Assembly (NCBI GenBank): GCA_032718475.1
Contig: JAUCBJ010005572.1
Location: 3,058-67,057, forward strand
From: Nemertoderma westbladi
Taxonomy: Eukaryota; Animalia; Xenacoelomorpha
Length of the DNA stretch: 64,000 nucleotides
Direction of reading: 5' to 3'
Part shown: positions 10,165-61,786 of the stretch, piece after piece
How the letters are laid out: every line of letters begins with the position of its first letter
How positions within the stretch are numbered: the first letter of the stretch is position 1
The notes under the pieces: generated by a model
Told to the model about the DNA's origin: nothing
The model's database searches: none
What the model saw: only the letters and a program-made list of their open reading frames with translations
Translations under genes and position numbers: made by a program

Positions 10165-10217
10165 TCTTGCAGTGGGTTAGCCTAAGTGATGGCTACTGAA
10201 GGATCAGCACCAACACA

Positions 10218-28089: not shown

Positions 28090-28623
28090 TGTGACGGGAT
28101 CCAGGAGGGATCCCGATTTATCCGATGTTTAGTTCACGCGTCCCCGCCGTGTGTAAAGAGTAAAATGAGTTCTGATGTTCGGTGTATATAATGATCAGTC
28201 TAATAAGATATAGATATAGGTTGTTGTACACGGAAGGCGGGATACGGTAACTAAAGTCCCGGTCCTTCCCTAGCTAAACTATCTAACCTAACTAGCACCA
28301 ATATGATACTGGGATAACTGACTGGTATGATTACTGGTAACTGGTTATATTGCACGGTGGCCTTATTGCTGTACCTAATCGATGCCTTTCCCCCCCTCTG
28401 ATTGGTTGATACCCTTGTTGGCGCCCTTTGGAGTGTTTCCCTTCACTCCCTGTGTTCTCTCTCGGTTAGGGGTTTGGCCCCTGACCTCCATTGTGTGTTT
28501 CTCCTTCCCTTCCCACTTTATTGGGGTAACACGAGGTTGATATTGGTAATCAACCTCGTGCTCCCAATATTGCTTAATGGCTCACTCTATGGGTTTGTGT
28601 TAGCGGAATTGGATAAGCTAACA
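28090..28623 (-). repeat. 3' LTR of copy A (534 bp)
   Basis: Direct repeat of 35622-36155; PPT adjacent at 28624-28632. Confidence 0.95.
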
Positions 28624-30326: not shown

Positions 30327-32711
30327 CTAACTAGGGCGATTCTTCCAACAGGCACTCTCCCACTGCTGCTCTTGTAGGTCCTGTAGGATTCGCCGCACTC
30401 TCTTCGCCAATTCCATCTCACCAGGAATTGGTTCTCCCTCTTTCACCACCCTAAGGTTGGGTCTCTCCACCGTCTTCTTAACTAGCTCATCTCCTGGCAT
30501 CAAAATGCCACCTCCCTCCTTGCTGTCTCCCGCCGGCAGAATGAATAGAAAGTGAAAGAACAGGCAGAACAGAAGGTAGCATAATAGTCCTATCCCTTTC
30601 CATCCTGCCTTCCTTCTCGACTTCCCCCTTGTCGGTATGCCTCCAACCCGGACCTGCGTCTCTTCCGGACACTCCTCTGGACACTCCTCTAGACACTCCT
30701 TCCGACACTCCTCCGGGCACTCCCCCGGAGTGTTGTCCTTCGGACACCTCGCCGTCCGCTCCGCTCCATCTCCATACCGATGCTTGCTGGGAAACCTACT
30801 CTCCTCTGCCCACTTTCTTACTGTCACCTCCCTATCTGGCTCTACTATCTCTTGTTTCTCCTCTACTTCCTCTGCGCCTGCGGTGCCTGGTAACATGCAC
30901 CCTGATGTCTCTGTCACACTGCATGGGATCTTAGTTTTAACTGGGCCGCTAAGCATCCACCCGAACGGCGTGAGGATCGCCGTCGGATCCCGCTGCCTGT
31001 CTTCGCCGAAGACCGTCTTCGTTCTCTCGTGGGCCGTCGGGCAGTCCATCCCTACTATAATGGACACCTTCCTAACGTCCACCGTTGGTATTGAGAAATC
31101 GATACCGTCCAGGAATCTATATTGCTCGACCTCAATGTTGGTTGGTCGCCTGGCGTTGATGTTTATCGATTCTATGACGTGGATGGGGTCGATCGTCGCC
31201 CCATAGCCGCATCCCGGTGCAATCGCTGCTATCCTGCACCGCCCCGTCCTCGTCTCCAGGACCTCATCTTTACTCGAGACGGTAGTTACCGCCATTCTGT
31301 TCGGCCTCGTCTTTAGCCCTATCTCTTCGGCCACCCAGTTCTCCACCAGCGTGAAGGCTGCTCCGCTGTCGACCAGCATTAACGTCGTTACTGATCGACC
31401 GCCCTCTCCTGATATCTTTACTGGTACTACCCCGAGTAGTACTTTTCTCTTCTTCTCCTCTTCTGTCGTGCTTGTGGCCATTGCCTGGCCTCCAGTCTCG
31501 GACTCTCTAACTGCTGTTTCTTTACACTCTCCGGGTCTGTGTCCTTCTAACACACATCGATGACATAGTCCGTTTGCGTCTGTGTAGGCTACACGATCTT
31601 GTTTGGGCAACGCTTGCCAGTGCTTACAACTCCTGGTCTTATGTGTTCCGTCCCGATGTAATTGACATTCGAATCCTGGATTATAGCGTTCCCTGTATAG
31701 TCCCTCACGTATCGCGCCTAGGTTTATATGTACCGATTTAGTGTTTTGGTTGTCTGTATTCGGCCTACTGGGTACATTGGGATTATGTTTATTTATGGTG
31801 TTATTTTCTTTCTGTCCCTGCCACGGTGTGGCCCTACTACCAGCTAACTGTGGACTAGCAGTCCCCTGTGTGGCCGCATGTGGTAGTGATTGTCCTACTC
31901 TCGGGAATGGATCTGCAGGATCGTGTTCGGGTTTATGGCTTGTCCCCAAACTATCCTCGCTATAGACTGGGTCTGTTATTAGTTCGGCTTCATAGTTGAG
32001 GAAGCTCGACATCTCTTCTAAGCCCGGTTCCGCACCCTTCTTCTCCCGTGTGGAGAAGGCTATCTTCCTCCACTTCCTTCGTAACCAGATCGGCAGTGCC
32101 TGCGCTATCGTGGTGATGTTGTTAGACGCGTTGAGTTCGTATGGTGCGTCTAGCGTCTTTAACACGATTAACGCCTTCTCGACCTTGTTTGCAAAGGTCC
32201 TTATGCTAACGGGATTGTCCTGTAGGCCATCCGATGTTATGCCTCTCAGGGTTTGCCGGATGATCTTGGCCGGGTGCCCGTATTCCCTATCTAGCGCCCG
32301 CCATGCTGTTGTGAAGCCGCCCTCGATGCCCTGGTATTGCCTCACGATGTCGTATGCTGGGCCTCCTGTATATACTTGCAGATATTTTAGGCACTCCGCC
32401 TGCATCAAGTTCTTACTTAATATTTCGTTACTATACATGCGCCGAAACTGTAGATATTCTTCCGGCCTACTCCCATCGAATTTAAATGGTTCCACAGGTG
32501 GTAACTCGATCCTAGTTTTTAATGCATCGATTAATGTGGCCATTCCCATCGCTTGCGCTTCTAATGGGTTCGATGGATGTTGTATAGTTTCTCTTGTTGG
32601 GTACGGTCCGTTCGTCCTATCTGTTGTTGATTTAATTTGTTGCGTCGGATATATCATTGGGGGTAACGGCCCCCTCCATATTTCCGTGTCGCACGATCTG
32701 TTCTCGTCCAA
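30327..32711 (-). CDS. BEL/Pao Gag core (DUF1759-like), Zn knuckles, aspartic protease and C-terminal transmembrane-like tail
   Basis: PFKFDGSRPEEYLQF...LKYLQVYTGG...AWRALDREYG; CQLH...H...C and CHRCVLEGHRPGEC; LVDSGAAFTLV; IIVGMD; TPFGWMLSGP; then GIGLLCYLLFCLFFHFLFILP. Probably the 3' part of one ~1700-aa ORF starting at ATG 35465. Confidence 0.88.
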   Translation of the reverse strand: MDENRSCDTEIWRGPLPPMIYPTQQIKSTTDRTNGPYPTRETIQHPSNPLEAQAMGMATLIDALKTRIELPPVEPFKFDGSRPEEYLQFRRMYSNEILSKNLMQAECLKYLQVYTGGPAYDIVRQYQGIEGGFTTAWRALDREYGHPAKIIRQTLRGITSDGLQDNPVSIRTFANKVEKALIVLKTLDAPYELNASNNITTIAQALPIWLRRKWRKIAFSTREKKGAEPGLEEMSSFLNYEAELITDPVYSEDSLGTSHKPEHDPADPFPRVGQSLPHAATQGTASPQLAGSRATPWQGQKENNTINKHNPNVPSRPNTDNQNTKSVHINLGAIREGLYRERYNPGFECQLHRDGTHKTRSCKHWQALPKQDRVAYTDANGLCHRCVLEGHRPGECKETAVRESETGGQAMATSTTEEEKKRKVLLGVVPVKISGEGGRSVTTLMLVDSGAAFTLVENWVAEEIGLKTRPNRMAVTTVSSKDEVLETRTGRCRIAAIAPGCGYGATIDPIHVIESININARRPTNIEVEQYRFLDGIDFSIPTVDVRKVSIIVGMDCPTAHERTKTVFGEDRQRDPTAILTPFGWMLSGPVKTKIPCSVTETSGCMLPGTAGAEEVEEKQEIVEPDREVTVRKWAEESRFPSKHRYGDGAERTARCPKDNTPGECPEECRKECLEECPEECPEETQVRVGGIPTRGKSRRKAGWKGIGLLCYLLFCLFFHFLFILPAGDSKEGGGILMPGDELVKKTVERPNLRVVKEGEPIPGEMELAKRVRRILQDLQEQQWESACWKNRPS

Positions 32712-35465
32712 GGGGTTCGATGTTCTCGCTCCTATTGGGGTATATTGTTGATATTGTGATGGGGGAATGTCACCCTGTCCCCCCCCCCACCGGTATGTTT
32801 GGTACTGGGGTTGATGTTAATATATTGGGGCCCATACATCTATCTACAATGACTCTCCCCTCCCCTGGATATATGTTATGTCCCTGGAAATTATAGTCAT
32901 GCTGCTGTACCGGTACCGATATAGGCCTATTCACTTCTTGCCTACCTACCGGTATGTACTCCGCGACTTCCGGGTTTAATCCCGTCGTCCGCGCTACCCT
33001 ATCGCCTACTCTATCTCTCCCAGCATGGCCTATAATAGTATGTGCAGTAAGGCCTACAGTATGTCCTGCAGTCTGCATGTGCCCTTCCGAATCGAAGTTT
33101 ATTCTTCGCGAATCTCGAATCTCCCCGCGACTACCGTACTCTCGATCGGCAGCTATATCCCGTCGGGAAGCTTCTCTTCGATCCCCATTCCTGTTCTCTT
33201 CTTCGTATCGGTACATCCTGTACCCCTCTCTTGGCGTGCGGTGCGTTTCTCCGGGGCGACGGCAATCTCCCGAAGTTCGACCCCACTGACTCCCTAACTC
33301 CATCTCTACTATCGACGGCTCGCTATCCGTCCTCGCTCTCCTATCGTTCGTGGCGACACTTCTTCTACTATCTTCTCTTCTTCTCTTTTCGACCTCTCGG
33401 TTAAACTCTACTAATCTTCTTCTATCTTCAACCCCTCTATTAAACTCTACTAATCTTCTCTCTTCTGACTGGGCTCGACGTTCCGTCGCCCGCCCTTTCG
33501 CGACGTCAACCTGTCTCTCTCTGCTCGATCGCACGCCGCTGGGGATACTCGCAATCCCCCTATTACTCTCCGTCGCCGGGTATTGCGGTTTACCTGATTC
33601 GGCCCGCGCATTATCCGCTGACGGCTGTGGGACACTCTCTGCCCCCCCTCTCTCTCTACTAATCCCTCGCGGCGGGGTGCCCGTAGCCCCCCCCCCCCCA
33701 CCCGCTACTTCTAACTTCACTATCTCTTACTACACTTCTGCGTCCCTCTTGTCGGACACTCTCTACCCCCTTTCTCTCGCCACTAATCTTCTGTGGTGGG
33801 GCGCCCGTAGCCCCCCCCCCCCCCACCAGCCACTTCTAACTTCACTACCTCTTACTACACTTCTACACCCCTCTTGTGGGGCATTCTCTGCCCCCCCTCT
33901 CTCGCCGCTAATCTCATGTGGTGGGGCGCCCGTAGCCCCCCCCCCCCCCACTCGCCACATCTAACTTCACTATCTCTTACTTCGTCTCTACACCCCTCTC
34001 TAGTCGACACACTGTCTCTACTGCGGCCGGGTCTATTCACCCCCGCCTCTCTCTCTACTACTGCGTGGCCTACCAGGCCCACCTCGGGTTGGCTCAACCG
34101 CGCCACTTCCTGCCTACTAACTACGTGGCCTACCAGGCCGCCGTCTGCCGGGCTATACACGTCTGACGCGTTCACATTAATAGCACCATTCCCAATATTA
34201 TTTGTTAAATCAATTAAATTATTAGAATTTGAAACGGAATTATTTAAATTATTTAAGTTAGAATTATTATTATTTTCAAAATTTAAATTGCTATTCGAAT
34301 TATTTGAATTATTTTGATTATTCTGAATATTTGAATTAATATTATTATTTGAATTTAAACTTAAATTACTACTACCGGGTAAGATATTTCCTGTAATAAA
34401 GGGATTAGGGTTATTTACTACGGTACTATTAATACCAATATTTCCTAACGCACTACTACTACCCCCCCCCCCCCCGCCCGTACGGTTACTGTACATACTG
34501 TAAGTGTACCGCACGCTCTGTTCTCTTGCCTCACGCTCTTCGCGTTCACTCTCTCGCTCCTTCCTTCCCCTCAGTCGCCACTCTAATTCTTCCATTTTTA
34601 ATTTATATGCCATGCGTTCACTCTCTCGCACCCGTCTTTCTTTTGCGGAGGATGTAGCAGACTTATAGGTTGCGACGGACTCCCGCCGCCCCTCCGTCCT
34701 ACTAACTTTCCCCCGCTCTCCGGGGTTCTCGCTGACCAACGAGACCGAATCCTCGGAGCTAACCTCGGATTCGCCCTCGTGCGGTCCCGCCCAACCCACT
34801 AACTCAACTTCCCTGGCATCGACTAAGTATGGCCCTATGTACACTACACCAGGCCCCATACCCCTACGTTCCCATAGCCCAAACAGTTCGAAGGCAACCC
34901 CTCTCGCTCTCTCCTCGGCCAGTTCTCCCTGCCCAGAACGCACTAGGTAATCAAAGTATCTGTTCGACTCACCTAGTCGTCTCCTCAACTTCACCTGGTC
35001 TATCTCAACCCCTCCTCTAGCTTCCTTCAGTTGTTCCCGGGTCGCGGCGTAGGCTCGTCGAAGTCGATCAGAAACCCCGACATCCTCGTCGCCGACCTCC
35101 CTTCCATCTCTCCGGGTCCGACGTCGTACCGGCAGCCCCACCGTTGCCGTTCTGGTGGGCCGTCCGTCGCCCTCGGCCTGTGGCTGGCCGGCGACATCGG
35201 TACGTCGACCCTCGCTCCGTGTCGACTCGTCTTTCTCCTCTCCCGTCTCACTCTCTCCTCTACTCGACTCGCTCTCTCCTCGTAGACGACCCCCCACATC
35301 TTGGTTCGCCGGGTTGCTCGTTATCGACGTGGCGTCAACCGGCGTCGACGTGGTCGACGTAGCATCGACCGGCGTCGTGGGTTCGTATCGTATCGCCGTG
35401 GCCTCGCGGATCGTTAGATCGTCGTCCGGGGTCCGCGGCGGTGTCGTTCCTCTCTCTCGACTCAT
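32712..35465 (-). CDS. Long low-complexity N-terminal Gag extension (charged coiled coil, Asn-rich tract, ~41-aa repeats); frame broken only at poly-G runs
   Basis: ORFs 33855-35522, 33763-33960 and 32770-33720 join at plus-strand poly-C runs (about 33936, 33811, 33687, 32779); collinear with copy B 52222-55300. Confidence 0.6.
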
Positions 35466-35621
35466 CTTCGTCTTTAGTGATTGGTGGCTGGTGGTTATTG
35501 AGTTTATCCAGGGCAGCAGCACGGATTTAGTTACTGCCGAAGGGTTTAGTTACTAGCTAGGGCAGCAGTTGGTTTTAGTTACTGTTACAGTTTAACTAGG
35601 GCGGCAGCTCGATTTAGTTAC

Positions 35622-36155
35622 TGTGACGGGATCCAGGAGGGATCCCGATTTATCCGATGTTTAGTTCACGCGTCCCCGCCGTGTGTAAAGAGTAAAATGA
35701 GTTCTGATGTTCGGTGTATATAATGATCAGTCTAATAAGATATAGATATAGGTTGTTGTACACGGAAGGCGGGATACGGTAACTAAAGTCCCGGTCCTTC
35801 CCTAGCTAAACTATCTAACCTAACTAGCACCAATATGATACTGGGATAACTGACTGGTATGATTACTGGTAACTGGTTATATTGCACGGTGGCCTTATTG
35901 CTGTACCTAATCGATGCCTTTCCCCCCCTCTGATTGGTTGATACCCTTGTTGGCGCCCTTTGGAGTGTTTCCCTTCACTCCCTGTGTTCTCTCTCGGTTA
36001 GGGGTTTGGCCCCTGACCTCCATTGTGTGTTTCTCCTTCCCTTCCCACTTTATTGGGGTAACACGAGGTTGATATTGGTAATCAACCTCGTGCTCCCAAT
36101 ATTGCTTAATGGCTCACTCTATGGGTTTGTGTTAGCGGAATTGGATAAGCTAACA
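35622..36155 (-). repeat. 5' LTR of copy A (534 bp)
   Basis: Direct repeat of 28090-28623; contains TATAA followed about 28 nt later by an Inr-like TCAGTT on the minus strand. Confidence 0.95.
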
Positions 36156-40760: not shown

Positions 40761-40975
40761 TCAACCCATTTCCATCATTTTAATTCGTTTAAGCTGAATC
40801 TTGGCATTACTCCAACTACACTTCTACTCAGTTTGCTGCTATAGGTCGAAAACTCTCAATGTGAAAAACCTTCTCTCATTTCGTTATTTGTTTTCCATTC
40901 AGGCTGAAACTTGCAGATATACATGCTACTCCGTAGTCCATCTATATACATTATATATACACTATATATATAAAT

Positions 40976-42689: not shown

Positions 42690-45600
42690 CCCTCACACTC
42701 TAAATATTAATTTAGTTAATAGTGCCCAACAAAAAGTTATAATAATATGAAGGCACTCATTCACCCATAACACCAATAATAAATCATTCATGTTTGTGTC
42801 CCTCATTAATGTTTGTGTCCTGGCCGCTATGGGCTTCCGTAGTTATGTTATTAGGGGACATCTGGTTAGATTTTGCTTTAATAATTCTTCCGATTAACAC
42901 TTTACCATCATTTTATGCCACGTGCTGCGCAAACGCGCCACGTCGTGTATGTATGTGTTTTAATCCAAAATTATATCATATTATTGGACTTGTAAATGAT
43001 GGGTAATTGTTTTTTAAGAATTTCTCAAATTTTATATTTTATACAAATTTTATTTGTTAATATACGATTATAATATATACTGTAGTATAAAAGTTTGGAC
43101 GTAGCCTAATATGAAAAACCTTCAGCCACTACATCTACTTTATTAAGTTCGCAGTTACCTGTAGTGTACTGTACAATCCACGATATTGTATTAGCTAATA
43201 TTTTAATTTATTAAATAATGGCGTACATTCTCCTCTCCTCTAAAGATGTCATGTTCTAGGTCTACATAACAACCTCTCGTCTTCGATTTATAGATATGTA
43301 GGGAAAACAGAACGATTACAGACGATATATTTACAATAATTTCTAACGATAGATTTAAATTCAAAACAAAAAGGTTGGAGTAAAGGAAATATAATGATAA
43401 ATATATCATGAGATCGATTTGAGCAGCAGTAATCGAGATCATTGTTTTTCTCAGTAGAACAAATAATCCTCGGAAAACAAACCACTCCTAACGACAAACA
43501 AGATAAGGATGAGAGGTTGGAAACATATCCATTATATATATTCGATCAATTCCATTACGATGAAACGTAAGGAAAATTGAGAATGCGACTGTAATAATAC
43601 AATTTGAAGGAAGATGTAATGTTAGTGTTTTGGTTTATAAGTGGGTTCCCACCCACCCATTAATTACTGATACATTTTACTCTCATAAATTATATTTCCG
43701 ATTTTTTTCTTCATTGTATACTAGACATTAAATTGTTTTTGATATATATATATCTATAAAGAACATCATAAACATTTAACGGCATATCACAGGGTTAACA
43801 CTTTGCACGCCAACAGGCTTTTTAATTCATCCCCATGGAACATGTAACACAGGATGGACCAGTTTTCCAGAGAAGAATAATTTCAACAGCCGCTGACTAA
43901 GTTAAAAGTTATTAGGAGCCCACTCGACAGGCGAGATACTTATTGTAAAAATCTGCGGGATACTTACTGTAAAAATCTCAGGATATATAACACTGACTGA
44001 CTGACTGACTGACTGATAATTATCCAGGTTCAGGCACTTCCTGCCTGGCGATTTTGTTGAAATTTTACAAGTAAATTGCTTTGGTGGTTCATAATCGCGT
44101 TACAAAATATCAGATCGATTCTATGTGTGGTATTCGATATATTTAGTTTTTTGAAATTATTTTGTCGCGAAATTAAAAGCAATGTTAAAGTAACAACTCC
44201 TCCCTGAGCTGCAGCAGCTTTATAGCTGTGTAGGAATAGTTGAGTTCAGGGCTGCCTGAGATAGAATTCCATCAAGGCAGAATTTCTTGACTACACCCCT
44301 TCTGCTGCTGGCTGCTGGCTGAGTCTACACATCCTTTATCAGCTCTCAGGGATAAACAGAAAATAGTTCAGTTGTCAATAAACAAAACAAATTATACCAC
44401 TGCAGTAGGATTATATTATTATTATTCCACGAATCATTGGGCTGATTATTTTGTATAGGATATATGTAAAAAGTTCTTAAAAATAATATTCTTATTTTTT
44501 TTTATTACATAGGATTAGCATCATTATTTAGCTGAAGCATTAATAGTGTAAATTAATTTAATTATATTTTAATACCATTACTACATTGGCATACTGTAAG
44601 ATAAGTTTTAACATTTCATACAAATAGTGGTGCGAGCATAAAACTCAAATCACGCAAATTTAAAAGAACCGGGTGTGTTATAGCAAAGTTTCATTTTTTA
44701 TTATGTGGGACGAGCCACAAAGTCAGCTAGCCCCACGCCTTATAGTTTAGACAATTGTTTAGTTTTTACTCACTGCTGACCGACAAGGTTTATTTGTAAT
44801 AGTCTTGTAAATAGGATTTTTCCCCCGGGCTCCTTCCAGCCAGCTTGCTGGCTTTCTAGTTAATGTAGTCGAATCATTGTATGCCGAAATAATACATTTT
44901 ACGATCAGTACTAATAAGGTTCGTATAGGCCTATTAGCTCCTATATTCTAGGTCTGTGGTACTTGTATACTCACTCAGATACAGTACAATAATTAATTTA
45001 ATTAATCGTTAATATTAATGGTAAATAATTAAATCTGAAACACATTTCATTCAATTCGGCACCCATTAAACCCATATATTCCACATTCTACCCCCGAAAA
45101 CTAGCCGGTATGAAATATGGGCACAAAGAAGCAAAAGGATTTAACCCACAATGAAAATTGCCACCAAGTAAAGGTGAAATAATAGTGCAAGATACTGAAG
45201 TATAATATAAATATATCAATCACCATAACCACCAGATATTTTAAATACTAACTTTTCATTTAATTAAACTAATTCATATTAGATAACCTATGTTCTAGAT
45301 AACCTGAAAGAATGAGAGAATTTGAATGTAAATTATAATTTTATTATTAATTTATTGACTGTAAATAATGAAAAATAATGATATAAATAATGATGTAAAT
45401 TATGAAATAAAACATTGATAAATATCACGCGGCCGACGCTACATTTAAATTGTTTCGAACGGAACAACAATAATTTATTTATCAACTAATAAAATAAATA
45501 AAACCATGAAAGACCAATAGGTGAGGGTTCGTAAGAGTTAACGTTTTTTGGTGGTAATGGGGGGGGGGGGGGGGGGCAGTAACGTCTGTAGGCCGAAACC

Positions 45601-45948: not shown

Positions 45949-47280
45949 TTACATGAAGTAAATATTCCACCCCCTTATTTTAGCTATTAACATATGAATT
46001 AACAGAGTTAATATTAGTGGCAAACCAAACATACTGAATATACAGCATGCCATTGGGAAACCAAAGTAGTCAGTTAGTAAGCCACCGAGTATGGGTCCTA
46101 AAATATTGCCGAGCGAAATGGTTATCTTCAATCCAGTCTGTAGGAGAGTCCTGGTGTCTACGTTGTCATGACATCCCCCGGGTCCTAGTGCGATTCGAGT
46201 CTGCAACTCCAGACCAGGGTGGCGGGTTATCCCTGTAGTTATGCCCAATAGTGCGCAACCTAAAATCGATGAAGCGAAACCAGACGACCCATCTTCGTTA
46301 TTGGTAGGTCCAATAAGTTGCATGGTAACGGGAGTCAATAAGTAACCCAAAACAGTTGGATATGTTGGGTTAATTTGCGGGTATTTCTGCATCAAGTGAG
46401 CGGATAAGAGTCCGAGAGAGGAAGAAACCAATGGATAAATCGCGAAAATACCTCCGATCTCGTTCTGGTTTTTATGGAAAACTCGGTGTAAATGCAAGGC
46501 GTAATTCGCTGTGACCATCATGATGCATCCTTTATGGTAGGCTTGGATGAGAGCTAATATAGAAATACTGAAGTTTTTGTATAGACTCCAGTAAGAGGGT
46601 CTGTTTCCAATGGACTCGGGCCTATCAGTAAGAATCGCTGGAGACTCCACATAAGAGTAGAGGCAAATTATGGTAAACAGAGCTCCAGGTACGACAAATG
46701 TTGCGAGGAATCCGATATTAGCGTACGCCAAGGCGCCAAAGGTGGGACCAGAGGCAGACCCTATTATTGATGCGATAACAGCCAGACCGGAGAAGAAAGT
46801 CCTATGTCTTGGAAACACATCCATTAGTAGACTGTAACCATAGTTGCAACTAATATTGAGACCTATTGCTTCGAAGATCCTGAGTGCGAAACACACAATA
46901 ATATACACGATGTTGTTGGAGATATACTCTACGAACCCGAAGCAAAGAAGGGAGATTGCGCCAAATGTTCCAAAGACGGCGAGAGATACACGAGTTCCTA
47001 AGGAGTTAATTGTGAGAATAAAGAAGGAATTGATAATGATTCTCACCACAGAGAATGACGTAAATAGTGATCCGATTAGAGTGTTTGACCAGCCGCGTGG
47101 TTGAACCACCAAAGGAAAGAATGATTCTAGCAGAGTTACGCACCAACCCGGCACGATCTGCAAGGCTGTCAACATCACCCCTAATATGATCATTCGTTTT
47201 GAGTAGGTTTGATTAGGCTGGGGACCGGTGGGTGTCTGTATGTCAGGGTTATCTTCTGGATGGCCCAGGGTCTCTGCCAT
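45949..47280 (-). CDS. Major facilitator superfamily transporter (SLC18B1-like), single exon
   Basis: 443 aa with about 12 hydrophobic segments; FFPLVVQPRGWSNTLIGSLF, LRIFEAIG, FPRHR, GSASGPTFG, SLGNILGPILGGLLTDYFGF are typical of MFS/SLC18-type carriers. The subfamily is inferred. Confidence 0.88.
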   Translation of the reverse strand: MAETLGHPEDNPDIQTPTGPQPNQTYSKRMIILGVMLTALQIVPGWCVTLLESFFPLVVQPRGWSNTLIGSLFTSFSVVRIIINSFFILTINSLGTRVSLAVFGTFGAISLLCFGFVEYISNNIVYIIVCFALRIFEAIGLNISCNYGYSLLMDVFPRHRTFFSGLAVIASIIGSASGPTFGALAYANIGFLATFVVPGALFTIICLYSYVESPAILTDRPESIGNRPSYWSLYKNFSISILALIQAYHKGCIMMVTANYALHLHRVFHKNQNEIGGIFAIYPLVSSSLGLLSAHLMQKYPQINPTYPTVLGYLLTPVTMQLIGPTNNEDGSSGFASSILGCALLGITTGITRHPGLELQTRIALGPGGCHDNVDTRTLLQTGLKITISLGNILGPILGGLLTDYFGFPMACCIFSMFGLPLILTLLIHMLIAKIRGWNIYFM

Positions 47281-49803
47281 GGTTTGATAAGTCTTTATCT
47301 AACAATAGAAGCCAACGGGCGAGAATTCTAGTTGGTGATATTAAATGGTACTACAAATAAAATACAAATGTCACGCACGGTTAGAATGGGAAAGCAAGCG
47401 CGGCAAGCTACTGTATGTTAGCTAAATGGAGCGATCTATATTGATACAACATAAAAAAAACACATTTACAGCTCGTGGTGGCCATCAATTGCGTCTCAAT
47501 ATTACAATCACGCTTCATGCAATGAACGTGATACAGTTTTGAAATAAGTTGTTTCATTTTTATTTAAATTTCGAATTTGAACCTAATAAACAATCATCTC
47601 CAGCAGATATTTCTTCGTGTGACCGAAACGAAAATTGTCATAAATTTTCGCATAAAGTTTAATAAAATGGTGTCGAAAGCAACATTTTGAAATTTCGATG
47701 TAGCTACAGTAGTATAGCGCATATCGGCGTTAGCGCCCAACGTCTGTTGGGCTGTTGTGAAACTACCAGAACAAGATAAAACTGTACTGCACCAAAATAA
47801 GAGTACGAGGAAGCTACACTACAGAATAACAGTCTGTTCTTGTAGAAACACCCATGACTCTTCCCCTGCCTTGAATGGGGCCAGCCCTTTTAAAGACCAC
47901 ACCATCTGATTTATCTATATTTGCTTGCAGATAACTCAACTACACTGCTATGCTGTAAATATTAAACTAAATCCATTCACACATTCATATTCATACAGTA
48001 CAATGACAGTCATAAATACATTCAATTTGTGAAAAAAGTAAGTATAATACTGTAGCCCAGAAATGGCTGTGTGTAATTAAACCGTTTTCTGATTAAAACG
48101 TTTTTTTCATAATAACAATAACATAAAGTTTATTGAAAAACCCCTAATTTCTAAGTGAACTAAAATTGTAAAACTATATTTAAATTGTTTCTAGGTTAAC
48201 CAACTGCCTTAATTTTTTAAATAAATGATGGGAAAAGAATGCAAAATCCCAAAAACAATACAATAATTAACTACATAATCGAGTGTTGGGGCTATTACTA
48301 ATATAGTGATATTATGGATAAATAGATATCTATTTAATGGTAATTCTGATCTTTAGTGTGAATGGAAAAGTTATGGCAGTGCCAATATTTCGGCCACAAC
48401 ATGTGATAACACGTAAGGTACTGTACTGTAAGTACAATACATACAGTAGTTAATAGTTATAGTGTTGAATGTCAGAATTTAGAACACAACAGTAGCCTAC
48501 CGTTAAATGTTTAAGGTTATACGTAGCCAGATGCATCCCGACTCGCCCTGTTAAAGGCCTGTTATTTGTGTAATAATTAATTTTTTTAATAATTTTTAAT
48601 AATTTTTTTTCAATAATTATATTACATGACTTCGTCAAAATAGTAACACTGAAAAAATATTTTTGATGACAATAAATATCCGACCTGCATATTTCCATTA
48701 TGTGTACCCCGCCCGGTGATCTTGGCCCACAGCTATAATTGCAGATGAACTATAACTACACGTAAATCAACTATTGAATTGAATATGTAAAACATTGATT
48801 CATAATAGCTTACAACACTGCATCTAAAGTATTTGATAATTATTGTAAATTATATGTAATAAATTCTCCATTTTTTTTCCTTGAATAACGTGGAATGAAC
48901 AGGAAACAGAGTACCAGATGTTGGCAATGAAATGATCGTAAAACTTATCATCATTTCTATTATCGAAACATTTGGCAGAAACATCGCGATTGCTATAAAC
49001 ATACTGTATTAGCATTGACTTACTGACTGACTGGATCTACAGTCAAACAGGCTAACCGTATTCTACGGTCCCTGGGATGATCGGCTTCTCCGCCCATAGG
49101 CTGGACTCGAAAAATAGACATAAACGAAAAAGCGTAATAGGCGCAATGATAAAAACACCAGCTGGCACTCATAAAAATGGATAGAGATGGCCTAGTAATG
49201 ATATTCTATAGGAATGGCTGTTACGGGAGCGATCCCTGATGCACTTCGGCACAGTGCATTGTAACTAACCTACAAGGTTTCGATGTCCTGACATTAGGCC
49301 GCCTCCAATATACAGTACACCATGTCCCAGAATATAGTGTCGTATTTCAATGACCCTCCCCCCCCCCCCCCCCCCCCAATTTTTCTACAAATCTTAATGA
49401 GATTGCATGCAATTTGAAACAGAGATAGTTTCACCTCCCGACCACTAACTGGGTGAGCCAGAATTTTTGTTTTTGCTTTCAATCTTTAGCTACAAGTGTT
49501 TAAGAAACACTATACTATTTCTTGTTGTCTCTTTTACTTGAAATAAAAAGTCGGTTCCTTTTCGGGCCGCTAGGCCCGTCACGACTATTTCCCTCTAATG
49601 CGTTCCAAATTTCTGACCTCCTAAAACCTGATAAAAATAGTTGTTATTAAAATGGACTAAAATTAACTGGATCTGGACAGCAATAATATCCGGGCACCTA
49701 GAGACGAGCTTTTTGTGTAAATTCATCGAGAAGTTTTACCTCTAGCCTTCCTAATTTATTATTGGTGTTTTGGGGAATGAGTAGTTTTCATATTAATATA
49801 ACA

Positions 49804-51354: not shown

Positions 51355-51564
51355 TCTAAGGTCATAGTAGGCCGTAAGAATATGAGTCTATATTTGAACT
51401 GAGAATCATTCATCAGTCAAGTAATCTTTGGGTTTATGCATGTAAAGTCCCATACTTTACCAAAAAATAGTGAAATTTTTAATTTATACACAGAGAAGTA
51501 GTCTAACTCAGCCCAATCACCCAGTGGAATGCAAAGCACGTTTGTGTTGCGTCATCTTAAGAAA

Positions 51565-52157
51565 TGTGAGCGGATTCAATTCCGCATCACCAACCCCCAT
51601 ACAGTTGGAAAGGGCGCCTTTAAGCAATATTGGGAAGTACGAGGTTGATTACCAATCAACCTCGTATCACCCCCAATAACGGGCACAATACACAGCCCCA
51701 AAGAGCCACACAATAGAGGTTAGAGGTCAAGCTACCTCGAGGAGAGAGAGTAACAGCAGCGGGGGGAAGCACTCCCACAGAGGTGAAGGCGAGAAGTAGG
51801 TTATCAACCAATGGGGGGACAGGAAAGGCATCCGCTGAGTAGTAGGGCCAAGGTAATGTAGGGTGATTAGATATATATTACCGGTCAATGTTTGTGCCAT
51901 TTAGTTTACTCAGTAGTTTACTCAGTCACTTAGGGTAGTACGGTGACACTTTAAGACCGTCACCGCCGTCACCAATCAGTTACCATATCATTACCGGTCA
52001 ACTGTGCTATCTCAGTATCTGTTATCACCTATATTATATATATATTACCGTTCAAGTTTATTAACAACACTGGAACAACAGACTCTCTTTTTCCATCACA
52101 CAGTGCGGCTGACGCGTACATAAACCAAACTGGTCGGGATCCTCTGATCCCATCACA
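51565..52157 (+). repeat. 5' LTR of copy B (593 bp)
   Basis: TGTGAGC...CATCACA; TATA-like run near 51882 and TCAGT near 51910 and 51922. Confidence 0.95.
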
Positions 52158-52221
52158 GTCTTAAAGTCTAAGAACTGCCAAATTGTGACTGCCAGCCACC
52201 AGAGAAGAACAGAGTTAAGAG

Positions 52222-55200
52222 ATGAGTTAAGAAGGAGAGACGACACCGTCGCGGACCCCGGACGACGACCTAACGATCCGCGAGGCCGCAACGCGATGGT
52301 ATCAACCCACGATGCCGGGTTCGTCGACAATAGACGATCCGGCAATCCAAGCGGAGGGGGCCGTCTACAAAGAGGAACGATCGAGTCGAGAAAAGGGAGA
52401 GACAAGTCGACGCACGACGGCGGTCGAGGTACCGATGTCGCCGGCCAACCACAGGCCGAGGGTGACGGACGGCCCACCAGAACGGCGATGGTGGGGCCGC
52501 CGGTTTGACGCCGAACATGGAGAGAAAGAGGGGATGTCGGCAACGAGGACGTCGGAGTCAGCGACTGGCTCCGACGGGCCTACAATGCGATGAGGAAACA
52601 GATGAAGGAAGCTAAGGAGGGGCAAAACTGGACCAGGTGAAACTAGATCAGCGACTAGGTGAGTCGAACAAACATTTTAACTATCTAGTTCGATTTGGGC
52701 AAGGAAAGTTGGCGGGTGAAAGAGCGAGAGAGACTGCCACTGAACTGTTCGAACTGTGGCAATCTAGGGGTGTAGTGTACATAGGGCCATACTTAGTGGA
52801 TGCCAGGGGAATTAAGTTAGTGGGTTGGGCGGGACCGCGGGAGGGCAAATCCGAGGTTAACCCCAAGGATTCGGTCTCGTCGGTCGGTGAAAACCTCAGA
52901 AAGCGGGGGAAAGTTAGTAGGACGAGGAGGCGACGGGAGTCCGTCACGACCGACAAGTCTGCTACATCCTCCGCAAAAGTAAGAAGGGTGCTAGAAATAG
53001 ATCTGGCGTGCCAGTTGGATATCGTGGTGCTAGACCAAAAGGAGTTAGAGAGGCAGTTGGAGGAGGGAGCTGCGTTGCTAGAGAGAGAGAGAGAGAGAGT
53101 TGGCGAGGGAGTGTAAAGAGAGAGCTGATAGGGTAGCCAGGAACTGTAGGGAGAAAGAAGAGAGGGAGAAAGAGAAGCGCGAGGAGCGAGAAGGGAGGGA
53201 GAAAGAGGAGCGCGAGAGGGAGAAAGAGGAGCGCAAGAGGGAGAAAGAGGAGCACAAGAGGGAGAAAGAGGAGCGAGAAGGGAGGGAGAAAGAGGAGCGC
53301 GAGAGGGAGAAAGAGGAGCGCAAAGAACAAGAAGTGAGAGAGGCAGCAAGGGTGGAGAGAGAAACAAATGAACATAGAGAGCGGGTTGCGAGAGAGGCAG
53401 AGTTGGCCGAGCAAAGTTTACGAGAGGATAGAGAGAGGGAGAGAGAGGGGAAGCGTATGCGGGATGATATGCATACCCGGCTAAGAGGGCTTATGCAGTA
53501 TCAGGCCAAGCAGAAGCGCCGACTAGAACTGGCGCAGTTGGGGCTATCAGAGAGTGAGGCTGGCTCGGGTAGTATTTACGAGGAGCCAGAGGTAGTGAAA
53601 ACGTTTGTTAATACCCCACTTACAGGCACCGAGAGAACCAGAACTGGTGTAGCCGTACGGGCGGGGGGGGGGGGGGGGGGGTAATAATAATACGTTAGGA
53701 GATATTAATATTAATAGTACTGTAGTAGATAACCCTAATCAAACTTTTATTACAGGAAATAGTATTTTACCCGGTGATTTAAATACAAATAATCCAAATA
53801 ATAATTTAAACCCAAATATCCAAAATAATCCAAATAATAATATTAATTTAAATATAGAAAATAATAATTCTAATTCAAATATTCCAAATAATTCGATTAA
53901 TAATTTAAATTTAGAAAATAATAATAATTCTAATTTAAATAATTTAAATAATAATATTGATAACGGCTCTATTAATACTAATGTAGACACAGGTAGTCCA
54001 GCCAACGAGGGCCTGCAAGGCCACGCAGTTAGTGCGCAGGGAGTAGCGGGGGTGAGAGACCCCGAACGGGGCCTGGTAGGCCACGTAGTTAGTAGGCAGG
54101 GAGTAGCGGGGGTGAGTCAACCCGACGGGGGCCTGTCAGGCCACGCAGTTGCACAGGGAGAGGCGGGGGTGAGTAGACCCAGCCGCAGTAGAGACAGTGC
54201 GTCGACTAGAGAGGGGTGTAGAAGTGAAGTAAGAGATAGTGAAGTTAGAAGTGGCGAGTGGCGAGTGGGGGGGGCTACGGGCGCCCCACCACGGAAGATT
54301 AGTGGCGAGAGAGGGGGGCAGAGAATGCCCCGCAAGGGGGGCGTAGAAGTGAAGTAAGAGATAGTGAAGTAAGAAGTGGCGGGTGTGGGGGGGCTACGGG
54401 CGCCCCACCACGAGAGATTAGTAGCAAGAAGGGGGGGCAGAGAATATCCCACAGGTGTCGGCGGATAATGCGTGGGGCAAGTTAGGTGAACTGCGGCAGC
54501 CGACGACGGAGAATAGTAGGGGGATGGCGAGTATCCCCAGGAGGGTCCAGCCGGACAGAGTAGAGACAGATGTTAGCACCGAGAGTGGGCGAGCGAGAAG
54601 ATGTCAGTCGGAAGAGAGAAGAAGATTAGTAGAGTTTAACCGGGAGGTCGAAGAGAGAAGAAGTGAAGAGAATAATAGAAGAGTCGTTGCTAGGAGCAAC
54701 CGGAGAGCAAGGACGGATAGAGAGCCGTCGATATTAGAGATGGAGTTAGGGAGTCAGTGGGGTCGAACTCTGGGAGATTGCCGTCGCCCCGGAGAAACGC
54801 ACCGCACGCCAAGAGAGGGGTACAGGATGTACCGATATGAAGACGGAAACAGGAGAGGGGATCGAAGAGAAACTTCCCGACGGGATATAGCTGCCGATCG
54901 AGAGTACGGTAGTCGCGGGGAGATTCGAGATTTGAGAAGATTAAACTTCGGTTCGGAAGGGCACATGCAGACTGCAGGACATACTGTAGGCCTTACTGCA
55001 CATACTATTATAGGCCATACTGGGAGAGATAGTGTAGGCGATAGGGTAGCGCGAACGATGGGATTAAACCCGGAAGTCACGGAGTACATGCCGGTAGGTA
55101 GGCAAGAAGTGGATAGGCCTATATCGGTACCAGCACAGCAGCATGACTATAATATCCAGGGACATAACATATATCCAGGGGAGGGGAGAGTTATTGCAAA

Positions 55201-57728
55201 TAGATGTATGGGCCCCAATATATTAACATCAACCCCAGTACCAAACATACCGGTGGGGGGGGGGGGGGGGACAGGGTGACATTCCTCCATTACAACATCA
55301 ACAATATACTCGAACAGCAACGAGAACATCGAACCCCCTGGACGAGAACAGGTCGTGCGACATGGAGATATGGAGGGGGCCGTTACCCCCAATGATATAT
55401 CCAACTCAAACAAAATCAACAGACAGGACGGGCGGACCGCACCCAACAGGAGAATCTGTACAGCGTCCTTCGAACCCATTGGAAGCACAGGCAATGGGAA
55501 TGGCGACACTAATCGATGCATTAAAGACCAGGATCTAGTTACCACCAGTCGAGCCATTTAAATTTGACGGAAGTAGGCCGGAAGAATACCTGCAATTTCG
55601 GCGCATGTATAGCAACGAGATATTAAGTAATAACTTGACGCAGGCGGAGTGCCTAAAATATCTACAGGTATATACAGGAGGCCCAGCGTATGACATCATG
55701 AGGCAGTATCAGGGCATCGAGGGCGGCTTCACGACTGCATGGCGGGCGCTAGACAGGGAATACGGACACCCAGCCAAGATCATCCAGCAGACCCTGAGGG
55801 GTATAACATCAGGTGGCCTACAAGACAACCCTGTTAGCATAAAGACCTTTGCGAACAAGGTCGAGAAGGCGTTAATCGTACTGAAGACATTAGACGCGCC
55901 ATACGAACTCAACGCATCTAATAACATCACCACGATAGCGCAGGCACTGTCGATCTGGCTGCGGAGCAAGTGGAGGAAGATCGCCTTCTCCACCCGGGAG
56001 AAGAAAGGTGCGGAGCCAGGGCTAGAGGAAATGTCAAACTTCCTCAACTACGAAGCCAAGTTGATTACAGACCCAGTCTATAGTGAGGATAGTTTTGGGA
56101 AGGCGCCAAAGATCGAATACAACAGGCCTAAACCCAAACACAATCCTGCAGATCCATTCCCGAGAGTAAGACAGTCACTACCACACGCAGCCACACAGGG
56201 GGCTACGAGCCCACAGTTAGCTGGGAGTAGGGCCACACCGTGGCAGGGACAGAAAGAAAATAACACCACAAATAAACATAATCCCAACATACCCAGTAGG
56301 CCGAGTCTAGATAACCAAAACACTAAATCGGTAGATATAAACCTACGCGCGATACGTGAGGGACTATACAGGGAACGCTACAATCCAGGATTCAAATGTC
56401 AATTACATCAGGATGGAACCCATAAGACCATGAGTTGTAAGCACTGGCAAGCGTTGCCCAAACAAGATCGTATAGCCTACACAGACGCAAACGGACTATG
56501 TCATCGATGTGTGGTAAAAGGACACAGATCCGGAGAGTGTAGAGAAACAGCAATAGGAGAGGATGAGACTGGAGGCCAAACCATGGCTACAAGCATGACA
56601 ATAGCAAGAAAAAAGAGGAAAGTACTACTCGGGGTAGTACCAGTGAAGATAACAGGAAGGGGCGGTCGATCAGTAACGACATTAATGCTGGTCGACAGCG
56701 GAGCCGCCTTCACGCTGGTGGAGAACTGGGTGGCCGAAGAGATAGGGCTAAAGACAAGGCCGAATAGAATGGCGGTAACTACCGTCTCAAGTAAGGATGA
56801 GGTCCTGGAGATGAGGACGGGGCAGTGCAAGATAGCAGCGATAGCACTGGGATGCGATTATGGGGCGACGATCGACCCCATCCACGTGATAGAATCGATA
56901 AATATCAACGCCAGGCGACCAACCAACATTGAGGTCGAACAATATAGATTCCTGGACAGTATCGATTTCTCAATACCAGAGGTGGACGTTAGGAAGGTAT
57001 CCATTATAGTAGGAATGGACTGTCCGATGGCCCACGAGAGAATGAAGACGGTCTTCGGCGAAGACAGACAGTGGGATCCGACAGTGATCCTCATGCCGTT
57101 CGGATGGACGCTTAGCGGCCCAGTTAATACCGAGATTCCATCCAGGGTGACGGAGACATCAAGGTGCATGTTACCAGGCACCGTAGACGTTGTGGACGAA
57201 GAGGAGAAACAGGAGACAGCAGATAAACCAGATGGGGAAGTAAAAGTAAGAGAGTGGGCGGAGGAGAATGGATTTCCCAGCAGGTATCGGTATGGGGATG
57301 GAGAGGAGCGGACGCCGAGATGTCCGGAGGACAACAGTCCGGAGGAGTGTCTGGGGGAGTGTTGGAAGGAGTGTCCAGAGGAGTGTCCAGAGGAGACGCC
57401 GGTCCGGTTGAGAGGCATACCGACAAGGGGGAGGTCGAGTAAGAAGACAGGATGGAAAGGGATAGGACTACTATTGTACGTTCTGTTTTGTCTGTTCTTT
57501 CACTTTCTTTTCATTCTGCCGCCAGGAGACAACAAGGTGGGAGGTGGCATTTTGATGCCAAGAGACGAGGAAGTTAAGAAGGCGGCGGAGAGACCCGATT
57601 TTAGGGTGGTAGAAGAGGGAGAACCAATTCCTGGTGAGTTGGAATTGGCGAAGAGAGTGCAGCGAATCCTACAGGACCTACAAGGGGAGCAGTGGGAGAG
57701 TGCCAGTTGGAAGAATCGCCCTAGTTAG
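52222..57728 (+). pseudogene. Gag-protease-tail polyprotein of copy B; upstream part disrupted, 55605-57728 still open (707 aa)
   Basis: MS*EGETTPSRTPDDDLTIRE aligns with the copy A start; stops and frameshifts upstream; Gag core, CHRCVVKGHRSGEC, LVDSGA and GIGLLLYVLFCLFFHFLFILP are retained. Confidence 0.85.
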
Positions 57729-58973
57729 GTGAAGTTGAGTCGTCCAATATTTTGGACTGAGGGGGGTGAAAATGAGGGCGAGACGCCCTTCCCACACAAA
57801 TAAATAATTATTTAAATAAAAAAAAAAAAAATTAAGTAATCAAATAATTAAATAAGAAGAAGGTAGAAAGTAATAGTTAAAAATAGTAAGAATAGTAAGT
57901 AGCAGAATAGTAATAGTAAGAAGTTAGTAGTCAGATAGTTAGTAGAAGCTAGATAGTAAGTAGAAAGTTAGAAGATAGTACGTAGTAGTTAGAAGATAGT
58001 AATTAAGTTACCGTTAGAAGTCGGCGGGTATAGGGAGTGTGGTATATAGACATACCACGGGAGTAGGAGGGTACGTAGTACCGAGAGAGTTAGAAGTCGG
58101 CGGGTATAGGGAGTGTGGTATATAGACATACCACGGGAGTAGGAGGGTACGTAGTACTGAGAGGGTTAGAAGTCGGCGGGTATAAGGGAGTGTGGTATAT
58201 TCACATGCCACGAGTAGTAGAGGGGTTGTGGGCACCGCAAGCGCCACGTAGACAGAGGTAGTAGCAGAGTTAGAAGTAGTAGTAGAGTGGTTGTGGGCAC
58301 CGCAAGCGCCACGTAGATGGAGGTAGTAAGCAGAGTGGTTGTGGGCACCGCAAGCGCCACATAGATAGAGGTGGTAGCAGAGTTAGAGGTAGCAGTAGAA
58401 TTAGGAGTTAGTAGAGTTAGAGTTAGTAGAGGTAGAGAGTTAGTAGAAGTAGAGAGTTAGAAAGCTAATAGAGTTAGAGTTAGAATCAGTAGAGTTAGAG
58501 TTAGTAGAGTAAGTAGCAAGTTCGACTTTAGATAAGGTAGATAGTATGATAGCACGGTATGATAGTATAAGAGATTAGGGCCTTAGAGAATAGAGGAGTA
58601 TGAGAGAAGTCTGGAGATGAGACAGGATGCGAGAGAGAGTGCAGACAAGTGCGATTCAGGTGTGGGGAGAGAGTGAGAGTGTTAGAGTAGAGAGTAAGGT
58701 AGAGTGGAGAAGTGTTGGGGAAACAAAAATTGTGTGAGAGAAACCCACAATTGGCCCGACACGGGACGCCAGATGTCTTGGTGCAAGATAGATGAAGTTG
58801 CACCAAGACAGGGTAGCGATATCATACCCATGGGTAGCGGCCTGGAAAGCCGGCTCCGAGGAAAAAATAACTCCACCCCACACCCAATAGTAGATCGGGT
58901 TTCCAGCGGAATTGAAGCGCGCTTAGAGGTTGATGCTATCTTCTCACCAGGAAGATAGCATGGGGGGGGGGAG

Positions 58974-59501
58974 TGTGAGCGGATTCAATTCCACCTCACC
59001 AACCCCCATACAGTTGGAAAGGGCGCCTTTAAGCAATATTGGGAAGTACGAGGTTGATTACCAATCAACCTCGTATCACCCCCAATAACGGGCACAATAC
59101 ACAGCCCCAAAGAGCCACACAATAGAGGTTAGAGGTCAAGCTACCTCAAGGAGAGAGAGTAACAGCAGCGGGGGGGAAGCACTCCCACAGAGGTGAAGGC
59201 GAGAAGTAGGTTATCAACCAATGGGGGGACAGGAAAGGCATCCGCTGAGTAGTAGGGCCAAGGTAATGTAGGGTGATTAGATATATATTACCGGTCAATG
59301 TTTGTGCCATTCAGTTTAGTCAGTAGTTTACTCAGTCACTTAGGGTAGTATGGTGACACTTTAAGACCGTCACCGCCGTCACCAATCAGTTACCATATCA
59401 TTACCGGTCAACCGTGCTATCTCAGACTCTCTTTTTCCATCACACGGTGCGGCTGACGCGTACATAAACCAAACTGGTCGGGATCCTCTGATCCCGTCAC
59501 A
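58974..59501 (+). repeat. 3' LTR of copy B (528 bp)
   Basis: Matches the 5' LTR apart from a 65-bp deletion at a CAG microhomology and roughly nine substitutions counted by eye. Confidence 0.95.
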
Positions 59502-61786
59502 AGAAACAATTAGTTTCATAATCTACTCCCTCAGAAACATCATGACGGCCAATTGAAAATTGTCCCATACTTTACCATTATAATGTCGATTACATTAGTG
59601 CACTGTATTAATGTAATATATGAAACCTGGAGGGCAGGAGTGTTATAATGCTTTAGGGTGATAGTAGGGGGAAGCATAGAAGTATGTATTTGAACTAAGA
59701 ATCATTCCTGAGTTAACTAATCTTTGGGTTTATCCATGTAAAGTCCCGTACTTTACAATAAATATCACATGTAGTATTTTAGCAGATAAGAAGATCGGTA
59801 AGTACAGTAATTGATACAATTACAGAAATGGAAAGAATTTCTAAACTTTTCACAGAATACATCTGTACCAAGTTTGGTTATATTTCATCAATAATTGGCG
59901 GACTTATTTCGGTTTTTATCAAAATTTTGAATCTATCGGTACCAACAGACAGACAGTCTGATATGTAACCTTTGATTCTTAAACCTCAGATTATTTCCAA
60001 ACTTTTGTCAGACTTCATACGTACCAGGTTTGGTTTAATTTCATCTATAAATGACCATAATACAGCATTATCGATCAAAAATTAGACAGATGACAGACAA
60101 CTCCTCAATGGCACCCATATGCTAAGACTTCGGCTCAATTTGTGGGCCGCCCCACATTTTGTATCCATATCTTGGTTGGAAATACTTAGTTGCACTTTAT
60201 TATCACTAATTATCCAGAAATTACTGTTAGATCACAAGTGTAAGACCATTTCGACCATAAAATTCGTACAGGTCCCGTACTTTACTTAGCAATGTCCCAT
60301 ACTTTACCACACAAACCACGTTGTAAATAATTAGCAATGTAACAATTAGTCTGATATTTATATTTTTATTTAAGCTAAATAATACAGCTTTATCCTAAAC
60401 ATCAACTCAACACCGTACCTGCGCACAATTCGCTAAACTTTAGAATTGAAATCATAAAATAGAAAAAACCATTTCGTACGAATCCGTACTTTACCTTAAT
60501 TGGACAAGCTTGTTGCTGCACGTGTGAACTTAGCCTTTTAGATTACTTATTTTACTAATTTTAAGCTCAAAACACCATTTTATATTGATAAAGTCGGTTA
60601 CGATATAATATTGGCTATTTCTCGTTAGATAATTCCTTGTCTGAGGGTTGTGACGCCATCTAGTGCCATTATCTGCATATCCAGCTTGTATTCGGCCTGT
60701 ATAAGGATCCACCTTATTGGCTATGCTCCTTACTGATAAGCTGATATATAAGTACGATTAGTTCTGTGGTTGATTCACTCTTTTTGTTATTGTTGGACAG
60801 AAGAAGTCGTATTGCCCATGCAGAGGCACTGATCCCCGGTCAGGTTTAATTGACTGGTGGTTATTACAGGCCTAAGGTCTCCACTTAAAGAGTTAATAAT
60901 TGAATTATAATTATTTATCGTTATATTGGATATTCTACTGGTAAATTCAATTTGTCTTTCTTATTTGCTTAATATATCGCCGATATTACAGAATCAAGGA
61001 GGTTTTACACGCGCCACAACAGGTGGGTTGCTGTAATTAAGTATCAGTGATAATCTGGACAATTGTATCGGATTTGTGTGTTGTCATATCTCTGACTTAC
61101 TAAATCATTAATATATGGCGATATTTCAGACCGTTAGCGTTAATATAAGCAAAGCTCTTATTATTAATTACATCACGATTGAGAGTTGTCACAAATTGAA
61201 TACTGTAGTGATATCAATATAATTAGACCCAAAGACTTGTCTCTTAGGCCTATACGTTTCCCCTAAAGGGAAACACAATCACCAGACTTGAGTCCTTACA
61301 GAATTAATTAGTCAGTCATTTACTTGTTATACTGTGTTGTCACACCCTCCCGGTATCGTATCTCAGTTAAATACAATAGATAATCAAATACCGTATTGAA
61401 CTAAGTGAAGTTATAGAGCAAATCAATGCATCGAAGGGAAAAAGGGTAAATAAACAGATACAGTGAGCGGTCCTTCGGTGAAAGGTACACTAGCGCAATC
61501 CCGTTTATTGTATCAGACCGGACATCTTGCCTTCATTTTTACATGGTTTATTAAGAAACAGAAAAGAGTCAAAATATATGAAAATTGAGAGTGAAAGAAC
61601 ATATTTTATCAAATGCGCTAACAAAGCTGGTGTTTTCTCAAAAGTGACCAAGTCCCGCCATAATCTTCGCGAAATCAAAGCTGATATTCGAAAGTTCAAT
61701 CCAAGCACAATTTTGTGCACATATGTGCTGTGGATAACATTGTACAGGCAATCAAAGTTCAAAATTGTGTACGAATGTCCCGTACT

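Follow-up and report, generated by a model that had tools for sequence, protein, structure and literature searches.

Putative Tf1-like self-priming in two BEL/Pao-derived LTR elements of Nemertoderma westbladi

Primers of LTR retrotransposons

Self-priming is described for the Tf1/sushi group and predicted for Tcn1 and the copia TAR lineage in the available text of the sources (PMC6317226, PMC4600332, PMC5341516). In Tf1 and Tf2 of Schizosaccharomyces pombe, Tj1 and the Tf1/sushi group, the primer-binding site (PBS) by the 5' LTR is the complement of sequence in the element's own LTR (accessible parts of PMC10085805, PMC7175516 and PMC4600332), an arrangement shared by the two elements reported here, A and B. 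Tf1 RNA is cleaved between bases 11 and 12 (PMC7175516), cleavage occurs within a three-duplex structure (PMC10085805), and the Tf1 PBS is copied into cDNA ends (PMC11042837), as given in the accessible portions of these papers. In the copia TAR lineage (Houba, Osr-1) and plant Tcn1, self-priming was predicted from a complement of at least 10 nt located 0-5 nt past the LTR (PMC6317226, available text). These are plant copia or chromovirus elements, and the same text gives no internal start or splice-join primer for them.

The ICTV profile describes BEL/Pao replication as poorly understood and tRNA-primed (PMC8742986). The Belpaoviridae (BEL, Pao, Tas, Suzu, Sinbad) are assigned host-tRNA priming, with an 18-nt PBS for tRNA-Arg or tRNA-Gly (PMC8742986). 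In the available text of a BEL/Pao survey (PMC3118150) the terms PBS, primer, priming and tRNA are absent, as are PBS, priming and tRNA in that of the Sinbad paper (PMC554778), and the accessible parts of PMC3601003 and PMC5445492 draw no link between BEL/Pao and self-priming. A literature search found no report of BEL/Pao self-priming in the text open to it, with most subscription papers, Repbase and supplements outside its scope. For Cer7 of C. elegans, a self-encoded tRNA-like primer has reportedly been proposed.

Elements A and B and their primer-binding sites

The window, the whole stretch of DNA analyzed, is 64,000 nt of Nemertoderma westbladi (GCA_032718475.1, JAUCBJ010005572.1, positions 3,058-67,057, forward strand). 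Two related LTR elements lie on opposite strands of it. B occupies 51565-59501 (+), A occupies 36155-28090 (-), and their parts are as follows.

51565..52157, +, B 5' LTR, 593 nt, TG..CA ends, with an insert that the 3' LTR does not have
58974..59501, +, B 3' LTR, 528 nt
51560-51564 and 59502-59506, target-site duplication (TSD) of 5 bp flanking B
58962..58973, +, B polypurine tract
55539..57728, +, B gag (DUF1759, Cys-His boxes) and aspartic protease (DSG)
35622..36155, -, A 5' LTR, 534 nt, same sequence as the A 3' LTR
28090..28623, -, A 3' LTR, 534 nt
36156-36160 and 28085-28089, TSD of 5 bp flanking A
30327..32816, -, A gag and protease open reading frame (ORF), without pol

The B LTRs differ by 9 substitutions over 527 aligned positions, in addition to the one insert. 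The TG..CA ends, the TSD and the polypurine tract are BEL/Pao LTR traits, and A and B share them with the Belpaoviridae, together with 5-bp TSD length, a DUF1759 gag, Cys-His boxes and a DSG protease. A Pfam search detected DUF1759 in both ORFs (E 7.5e-10 and 1.1e-10), and the DSG motif is present in both. A triple Cys-His box in gag is a BEL/Pao hallmark (PMC554778, available text); two boxes per ORF were identified by eye in A and B, and a third was not seen. The upstream part of gag is spread over several frames in both elements. No Pfam match to RT, RNase H or integrase was found in A or B, and all seven BEL polyproteins that were aligned in the window matched gag-protease only; RT, RNase H and integrase are therefore absent from A and B. 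The ten long homologues scanned were all BEL/Pao polyproteins with Peptidase_A17 and DUF5641. A BEL/Pao gag-protease with such homologues and a missing pol identifies A and B as young, non-autonomous BEL/Pao-derived elements, and the family assignment made in the initial annotation is upheld by the DUF1759 gag, the DSG protease and the ten homologues. Membership in Tf1/sushi (a Ty3/gypsy chromovirus group) was ruled out, the proteins being of BEL/Pao type. A and B differ from the Belpaoviridae profile (PMC8742986) in that such a tRNA PBS and pol are both missing.

The two elements end at the same residue motif past the protease (regions 52616-57728 and 30327-35549). The gag N-terminus is very long and of low complexity in both, with Glu/Arg/Lys-rich and Asn-rich tracts.

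The pair would form a stable gag-protease-only BEL/Pao family, a type for which a literature search returned no example. The A/B family is highly repeated in sequencing runs labelled organism A. Viral and metagenome contigs searched with the LTR patterns gave 0 matches, viral contigs scanned with the element proteins contained no relative, and a homologue search found no near-full-length match among 7,311 candidates.

The sites that concern priming are located as follows.

52158..52167, +, B PBS position, adjoining the LTR end, complementary to 51948-51957, without TGG
51948..51957, +, B predicted self-primer core, exactly complementary to the 10 post-LTR nt, with the cut predicted after 51957
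35613..35621, -, A PBS position, first 9 nt past the A 5' LTR, complementary to 35787-35779
35779..35787, -, predicted self-primer core of A, homologous in position and likewise preceded by TAGGG.AG.AC.G.GAC
35526..35601, -, A leader repeats, with long complementarity to R (the part from predicted start to core)

No TGG occurs in the first 20 nt downstream of the 5' LTR of A or B, and judged on this missing TGG neither element carries the PBS for a host-tRNA 3' end expected of BEL/Pao. The PBS instead lies directly past the LTR in both and is complementary to the element's own LTR, as in Tf1. The claim that B has no TGG-type PBS and that its 10 post-LTR nucleotides match its own LTR held exactly, 51948-51957 being the sole site in the B LTR with exact complementarity. 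Among 6,731 internal positions of B, only one has a 10-nt LTR match, the PBS itself. Dinucleotide-shuffled LTRs contained a PBS complement in 12 of 20,000 cases for B and 59 of 20,000 for A. B fits the TAR/Tcn1 rule of at least 10 nt at 0-5 nt, whereas A has 9 nt.

The second claim, that A has the same arrangement at the homologous LTR place with different letters, was likewise reproduced: its complement is 9 nt long, and cross-pairing reaches only 6 nt (A PBS against B LTR) or 4 nt (B PBS against A LTR). Core and PBS were both read in two copies of the window family, A and B. In a comparison anchored at the LTR end, 5 of the 9 pairs differ between them with pairing retained in all. A one-gap alignment of core and PBS requires fewer events, and the changes are still mirrored. 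The A leader contains three further copies of the PBS 9-mer, starting at 35582, 35553 and 35534. The PBS-LTR complementarity of A and B is confirmed as a real, non-random feature of the two sequences.

Splice-join complements in BEL/Pao relatives

An alignment of 20 long homologues retrieved 104 BEL/Pao loci, all on contigs of metagenomes or MAGs that presumably represent host-animal DNA. The loci L078-L104 are BEL/Pao polyproteins whose contigs belong to prokaryote genome records (mainly MAGs), and are probably host-animal DNA binned into prokaryote genomes. Flanking sequence was sufficient for an LTR repeat test in 73 of the 104. Thirteen were chosen by eye for a repeat ending in CA and a definable LTR end, which was set by copy divergence in 11 and by the contig ending there in 2.

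In 10 of these 13 loci (L001, L002, L024, L032, L039, L080, L089, L090, L092, L101), the PBS complements an exon-exon join over a GT..AG intron in the LTR, with 10-15 nt. It begins 0-3 nt past the LTR, and its letters are different in each. Shuffled controls reached the observed length in 0-2 of 200 cases per locus, and 9 of 210 cross pairs reached 10 nt, two of them within the sister pair L080/L090. Most donors fit a GTAAG pattern; the ones assigned to L080 and L090 are uncertain. A TGG PBS was found in two of the 13, L086 and L004 (at +5), and L098 has an interrupted match only, not a perfect one. In these 10 loci the complement is formed by the join only. Complementarity to a splice join cannot arise by an accident at the DNA level, and so in BEL/Pao the PBS encounters the LTR RNA itself. 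Read from sequence, A and B are the contiguous version of this splice-join complement.

Further splice-join candidates are L005, L020, L026, L030, L047, L081 and L085, and candidates occur in both halves of the gag-protease tree. A more permissive scan, left out of the counts, covered 65 loci whose LTR end was not fixed; it tested 3,868 sites and gave a match of at least 10 nt in 20 loci, many of them by chance. In the gag-protease tree (59 rows, quick method), A and B lie on a very long branch and are unplaceable among the relatives. The splice-join relatives share 22-30% identity with the A/B gag-protease, and with this identity and branch length any transfer of the mechanism from the relatives to A and B is inferential. 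An intron in the window LTRs was considered and set aside as less probable, the complement being contiguous and the would-be intron of A being a pairing partner of its leader. In B, position 51852 is donor-like and the AG sites are pyrimidine-rich (fraction 0.65), and A has a donor-like site that is non-homologous to that of B and poor acceptors near the core (0.29-0.41).

Predicted promoter, RNA folds and priming pathway

Both LTRs contain promoter-like motifs, from which the transcript start was predicted.

51808..51812 (+) in B and 35937 (-) in A, CCAAT box common to both LTRs
51872..51906, +, B TATA-like run at 51872, followed after about 30 nt by an initiator-like site, start predicted at 51903 by motif spacing
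35849..35881, -, A TATA-like site (35881) and TCAGTT initiator, start predicted at 35851 by motif spacing
51923..51939, +, B R segment, predicted partner of leader 52174-79 and 52185-91

The spacing from TATA to initiator is about 30 nt in both elements despite differing sequences, and the B 3' LTR and most aligned family copies fit the initiator better than the B 5' LTR. On motif spacing only, the core begins 45 nt (B) and 64 nt (A) from the predicted start, and the 5' fragment through the core 3' end would measure 55 nt (B) and 73 nt (A). These values support the internal position put forward earlier, inside R and not at the cap. Between the predicted start and the core, the A sequence has a pairing energy of -50.0 kcal/mol with the leader, significant at 6 of 2,000 shuffles; upstream of the predicted start the pairing was not significant (631 of 2,000). 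In B, the same R:leader test was not significant (920 of 2,000).

The structures predicted around the core are listed below.

51941..51947, +, B hairpin 5' arm
51958..51972, +, B hairpin 3' arm and alternative U5 partner region, pairing with 52103-52114 in a helix stacked on the primer:PBS helix
52103..52114, +, U5 partner of 51958-51972
52136..52151, +, U5 inverted-repeat hairpin, 6 nt upstream of the LTR end, pair probability about 1.0
35647-35627, -, A counterpart of the U5 inverted-repeat hairpin, 8 bp

The region folds better than shuffled sequence (z -3.15 in B, -5.65 in A), and an Rfam scan of 51500-52400 gave only two sub-threshold chance matches. The hairpin originally described around the core is present in B, where the core lies inside an 11-nt loop of a 7-bp stem (51941-47/51959-65), and is weaker in A, with a 5-bp stem and a 14-nt loop. 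This local hairpin competes with a three-way junction of the primer:PBS helix, the U5 helix and the U5 inverted repeat, and in A also with a U5 decoy. From the predicted start, the junction is 2.4 kcal/mol more stable than the hairpin in B (-69.8 vs -67.4) and 6.0 kcal/mol more stable in A (-73.9 vs -67.9). The decoy fold is the minimum-energy form of A at -77.5 kcal/mol, and forcing primer:PBS pairing costs 3.6 kcal/mol. Of three B RNA lengths folded from the predicted start, two have the primer:PBS form as their lowest-energy structure. The primer:PBS bases of B pair with a mean probability of 0.85, 0.41 and 0.00 at three RNA lengths, and those of A with 0.01; with this last value and the lower decoy, energy models alone do not favor the priming form of A. 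The decoy of A is a PBS-like site in U5, 35669-35660 (-), that vies with the real PBS for the core, and none was seen in B. The U5 helix was equalled in 57 of 1,500 shuffles for the B 5' LTR, 8 of 1,500 for the B 3' LTR and 91 of 1,500 in a further tally, a modest significance; it cross-pairs between A and B and is therefore conserved, not covarying. Among six folded joins of the relatives, the primer:PBS helix closes a multiloop as in A and B in five and only partially in L092.

It is likely that A and B prime minus-strand synthesis with their own RNA in a Tf1-like manner, a 5' fragment of a predicted 55-73 nt serving as primer. Self-priming, the use first proposed for the pairing, appears to be the likeliest one given the own-LTR complement and the mirrored changes, and the 10 of 13 relatives strengthen it. 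From the observed pairing and its statistics, we infer a start, fold, cut, primer use and helper element as follows. Transcription would start at the TATA/TCAGTT initiator, 45-64 nt upstream of the core. The local hairpin would open and the 9-10-nt core would pair with the PBS, while the bases after the core would pair with U5 and the U5 inverted repeat would complete the three-way junction. R sequence upstream of the core would pair with the leader. RT/RNase H borrowed from a presumed autonomous partner would cut directly after the core, as in Tf1, and the primer left behind would be a 5' fragment of 55 nt in B and 73 nt in A, close to the size of a tRNA. If the primer is copied into the plus strand, LTR changes would be written into the PBS, and read-through into the long primer could yield the inverted R copies of A. 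Such copying would explain the mirrored changes, the inverted R copies of A and the repeated PBS units. In that case the mirrored changes would record priming itself and not selection alone.

Like the Tf1/sushi elements in their accessible descriptions, A and B are without a tRNA match, and extra helices, predicted in A and B, flank the primer:PBS duplex. In Tf1 the first 11 nt of the transcript serve as primer, whereas the A/B core is predicted 45-64 nt inside. Unlike in Tf1, pairing is predicted to extend between upstream R and the leader, the superfamily is BEL/Pao, the own RT is missing, and in the BEL/Pao relatives the core is built by splicing. Set against the Tf1 multi-duplex 'pretzel' (PMC10085805, accessible part), the predicted three-way junction is not the lowest fold of A and has helices unlike those of Tf1. 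A and B probably represent self-priming of the Tf1 kind in BEL/Pao, for which tRNA priming is listed, and the internal core and long primer predicted for them are the new elements. The chances are about even for a broader proposal, in which a large part of BEL/Pao would be tRNA-free, its primer being a tRNA-sized 5' piece of the element's RNA that is cut off at an internal three-way junction; in most sampled members the core would be built by splicing out an LTR intron, and the window family would be splicing-free with a hairpin-to-junction switch as gate.

If true, BEL/Pao would join Ty3/gypsy and Ty1/copia as the third LTR superfamily with self-priming, and its geometry, an internal core and a long 5' primer, would be new. 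Such elements would evade control by tRNA supply and tRNA fragments and would presumably be overlooked by annotation tools that rely on the PBS. The A/B pairs and the splice-join relatives predict, per base, the RNA start, the cut and the content of the cDNA 5' end.

An unlikely alternative keeps the same core:PBS pairing and takes the primer from a cut or terminated 3' R copy, or in trans from the second RNA of a dimer. The core is found in both LTRs, the hairpin could display the loop for a kissing start, and no canonical polyadenylation hexamer lies downstream of the core, so that the RNA 3' end is undefined. However, the U5 helix adjoins the core without an intervening base, and together with the 5' copy it makes a compact, closed junction, Tf1 uses its 5' copy (PMC10085805, PMC7175516, accessible parts), and the 3' copy of the spliced relatives would have to retain the intron for inheritance and so could not supply the join. 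Equally improbable is that the pairing is a structural switch for packaging, dimerization or translation, with another primer such as a tRNA half or small RNA. The hairpin, decoy and junction forms lie about 2-10 kcal/mol apart, and the hairpin stem is retained where the loop differs. Half-tRNA priming exists in copia lineages (PMC6317226, available text), and the 64-kb window contains 0 tRNA genes. Against another primer, the complement starts at the first post-LTR base in A and B and within 0-3 nt in 10 relatives, and the different letters would demand a different external primer for each family. A tRNA anticodon arm ending at 39/40 fits neither core by hand comparison with general tRNA rules, with no 31-39 pair or a pyrimidine at 37.

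A 10-bp helix within a closed 11-nt loop is sterically implausible, so the intact loop:PBS pseudoknot with its 7-bp stem closed, which the initial annotation took as the priming complex, was rejected and is very unlikely. The B stem is real and is retained around a different loop in one family contig, but the A stem has just 5 bp, both elements favor the open junction over the hairpin in energy, and the hairpin may at most nucleate pairing or guard the 3' copy. The three-way junction is the better fit in these models, and the hairpin may be a gate or nucleation step for core:PBS pairing. Chance or a functionless DNA-level inverted duplication, suggested by the short matches and the degenerate motif repeats in the A LTR and leader, is largely refuted and has hardly any probability left, since shuffles rarely reproduce the match, site and mirrored letters agree, and an exon-exon join cannot be copied by a DNA-level event.

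Variation among copies of the self-priming candidates was read from aligned family contigs. Positions 51937-51973 show no substitution at 2% or more (summed depth about 8,400 in run X1), an invariance biased by the failure of contigs with another loop to align. The next 40 nt, 51974-52014, vary widely among contigs aligned to B in three runs. One contig of run X4 retains both stem arms around a different loop, a third loop variant, and another family contig retains the first 8 PBS bases followed by a different leader. Single-base deletions in the core make up 2-27% of aligned depth (11% in X1, 27% in X2), and no mirrored PBS change was found among the 12 of 44 indel rows listed.

Near the start of U3 (51628-51678; about 36097-36052 in A), a 14-bp perfect hairpin lies inside a 7-bp stem, and this is the LTR part with the deepest coverage across the family. 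Elsewhere in the window, a separate Ty3/gypsy-type element with RT, RNase H and integrase occupies 5507-10398 (-). Its LTRs are identical over 151 bp and flanked by a 5-bp TSD, a terminal CA is present on the 3' LTR but missing from the 5' LTR, and TGG motifs occur 20-35 nt downstream. At 15887-21934 (+) lies a fragmented, RT-bearing element of non-LTR-like type, with a weak SAP-domain match upstream. Two single-ORF host genes encode a Cys-loop ligand-gated ion channel subunit (25601-27082, +) and an MFS transporter (45949-47298, -). Tandem arrays of 55-nt and 19-nt units are present at 998-1767, 38442-39167 and 40937-42700.
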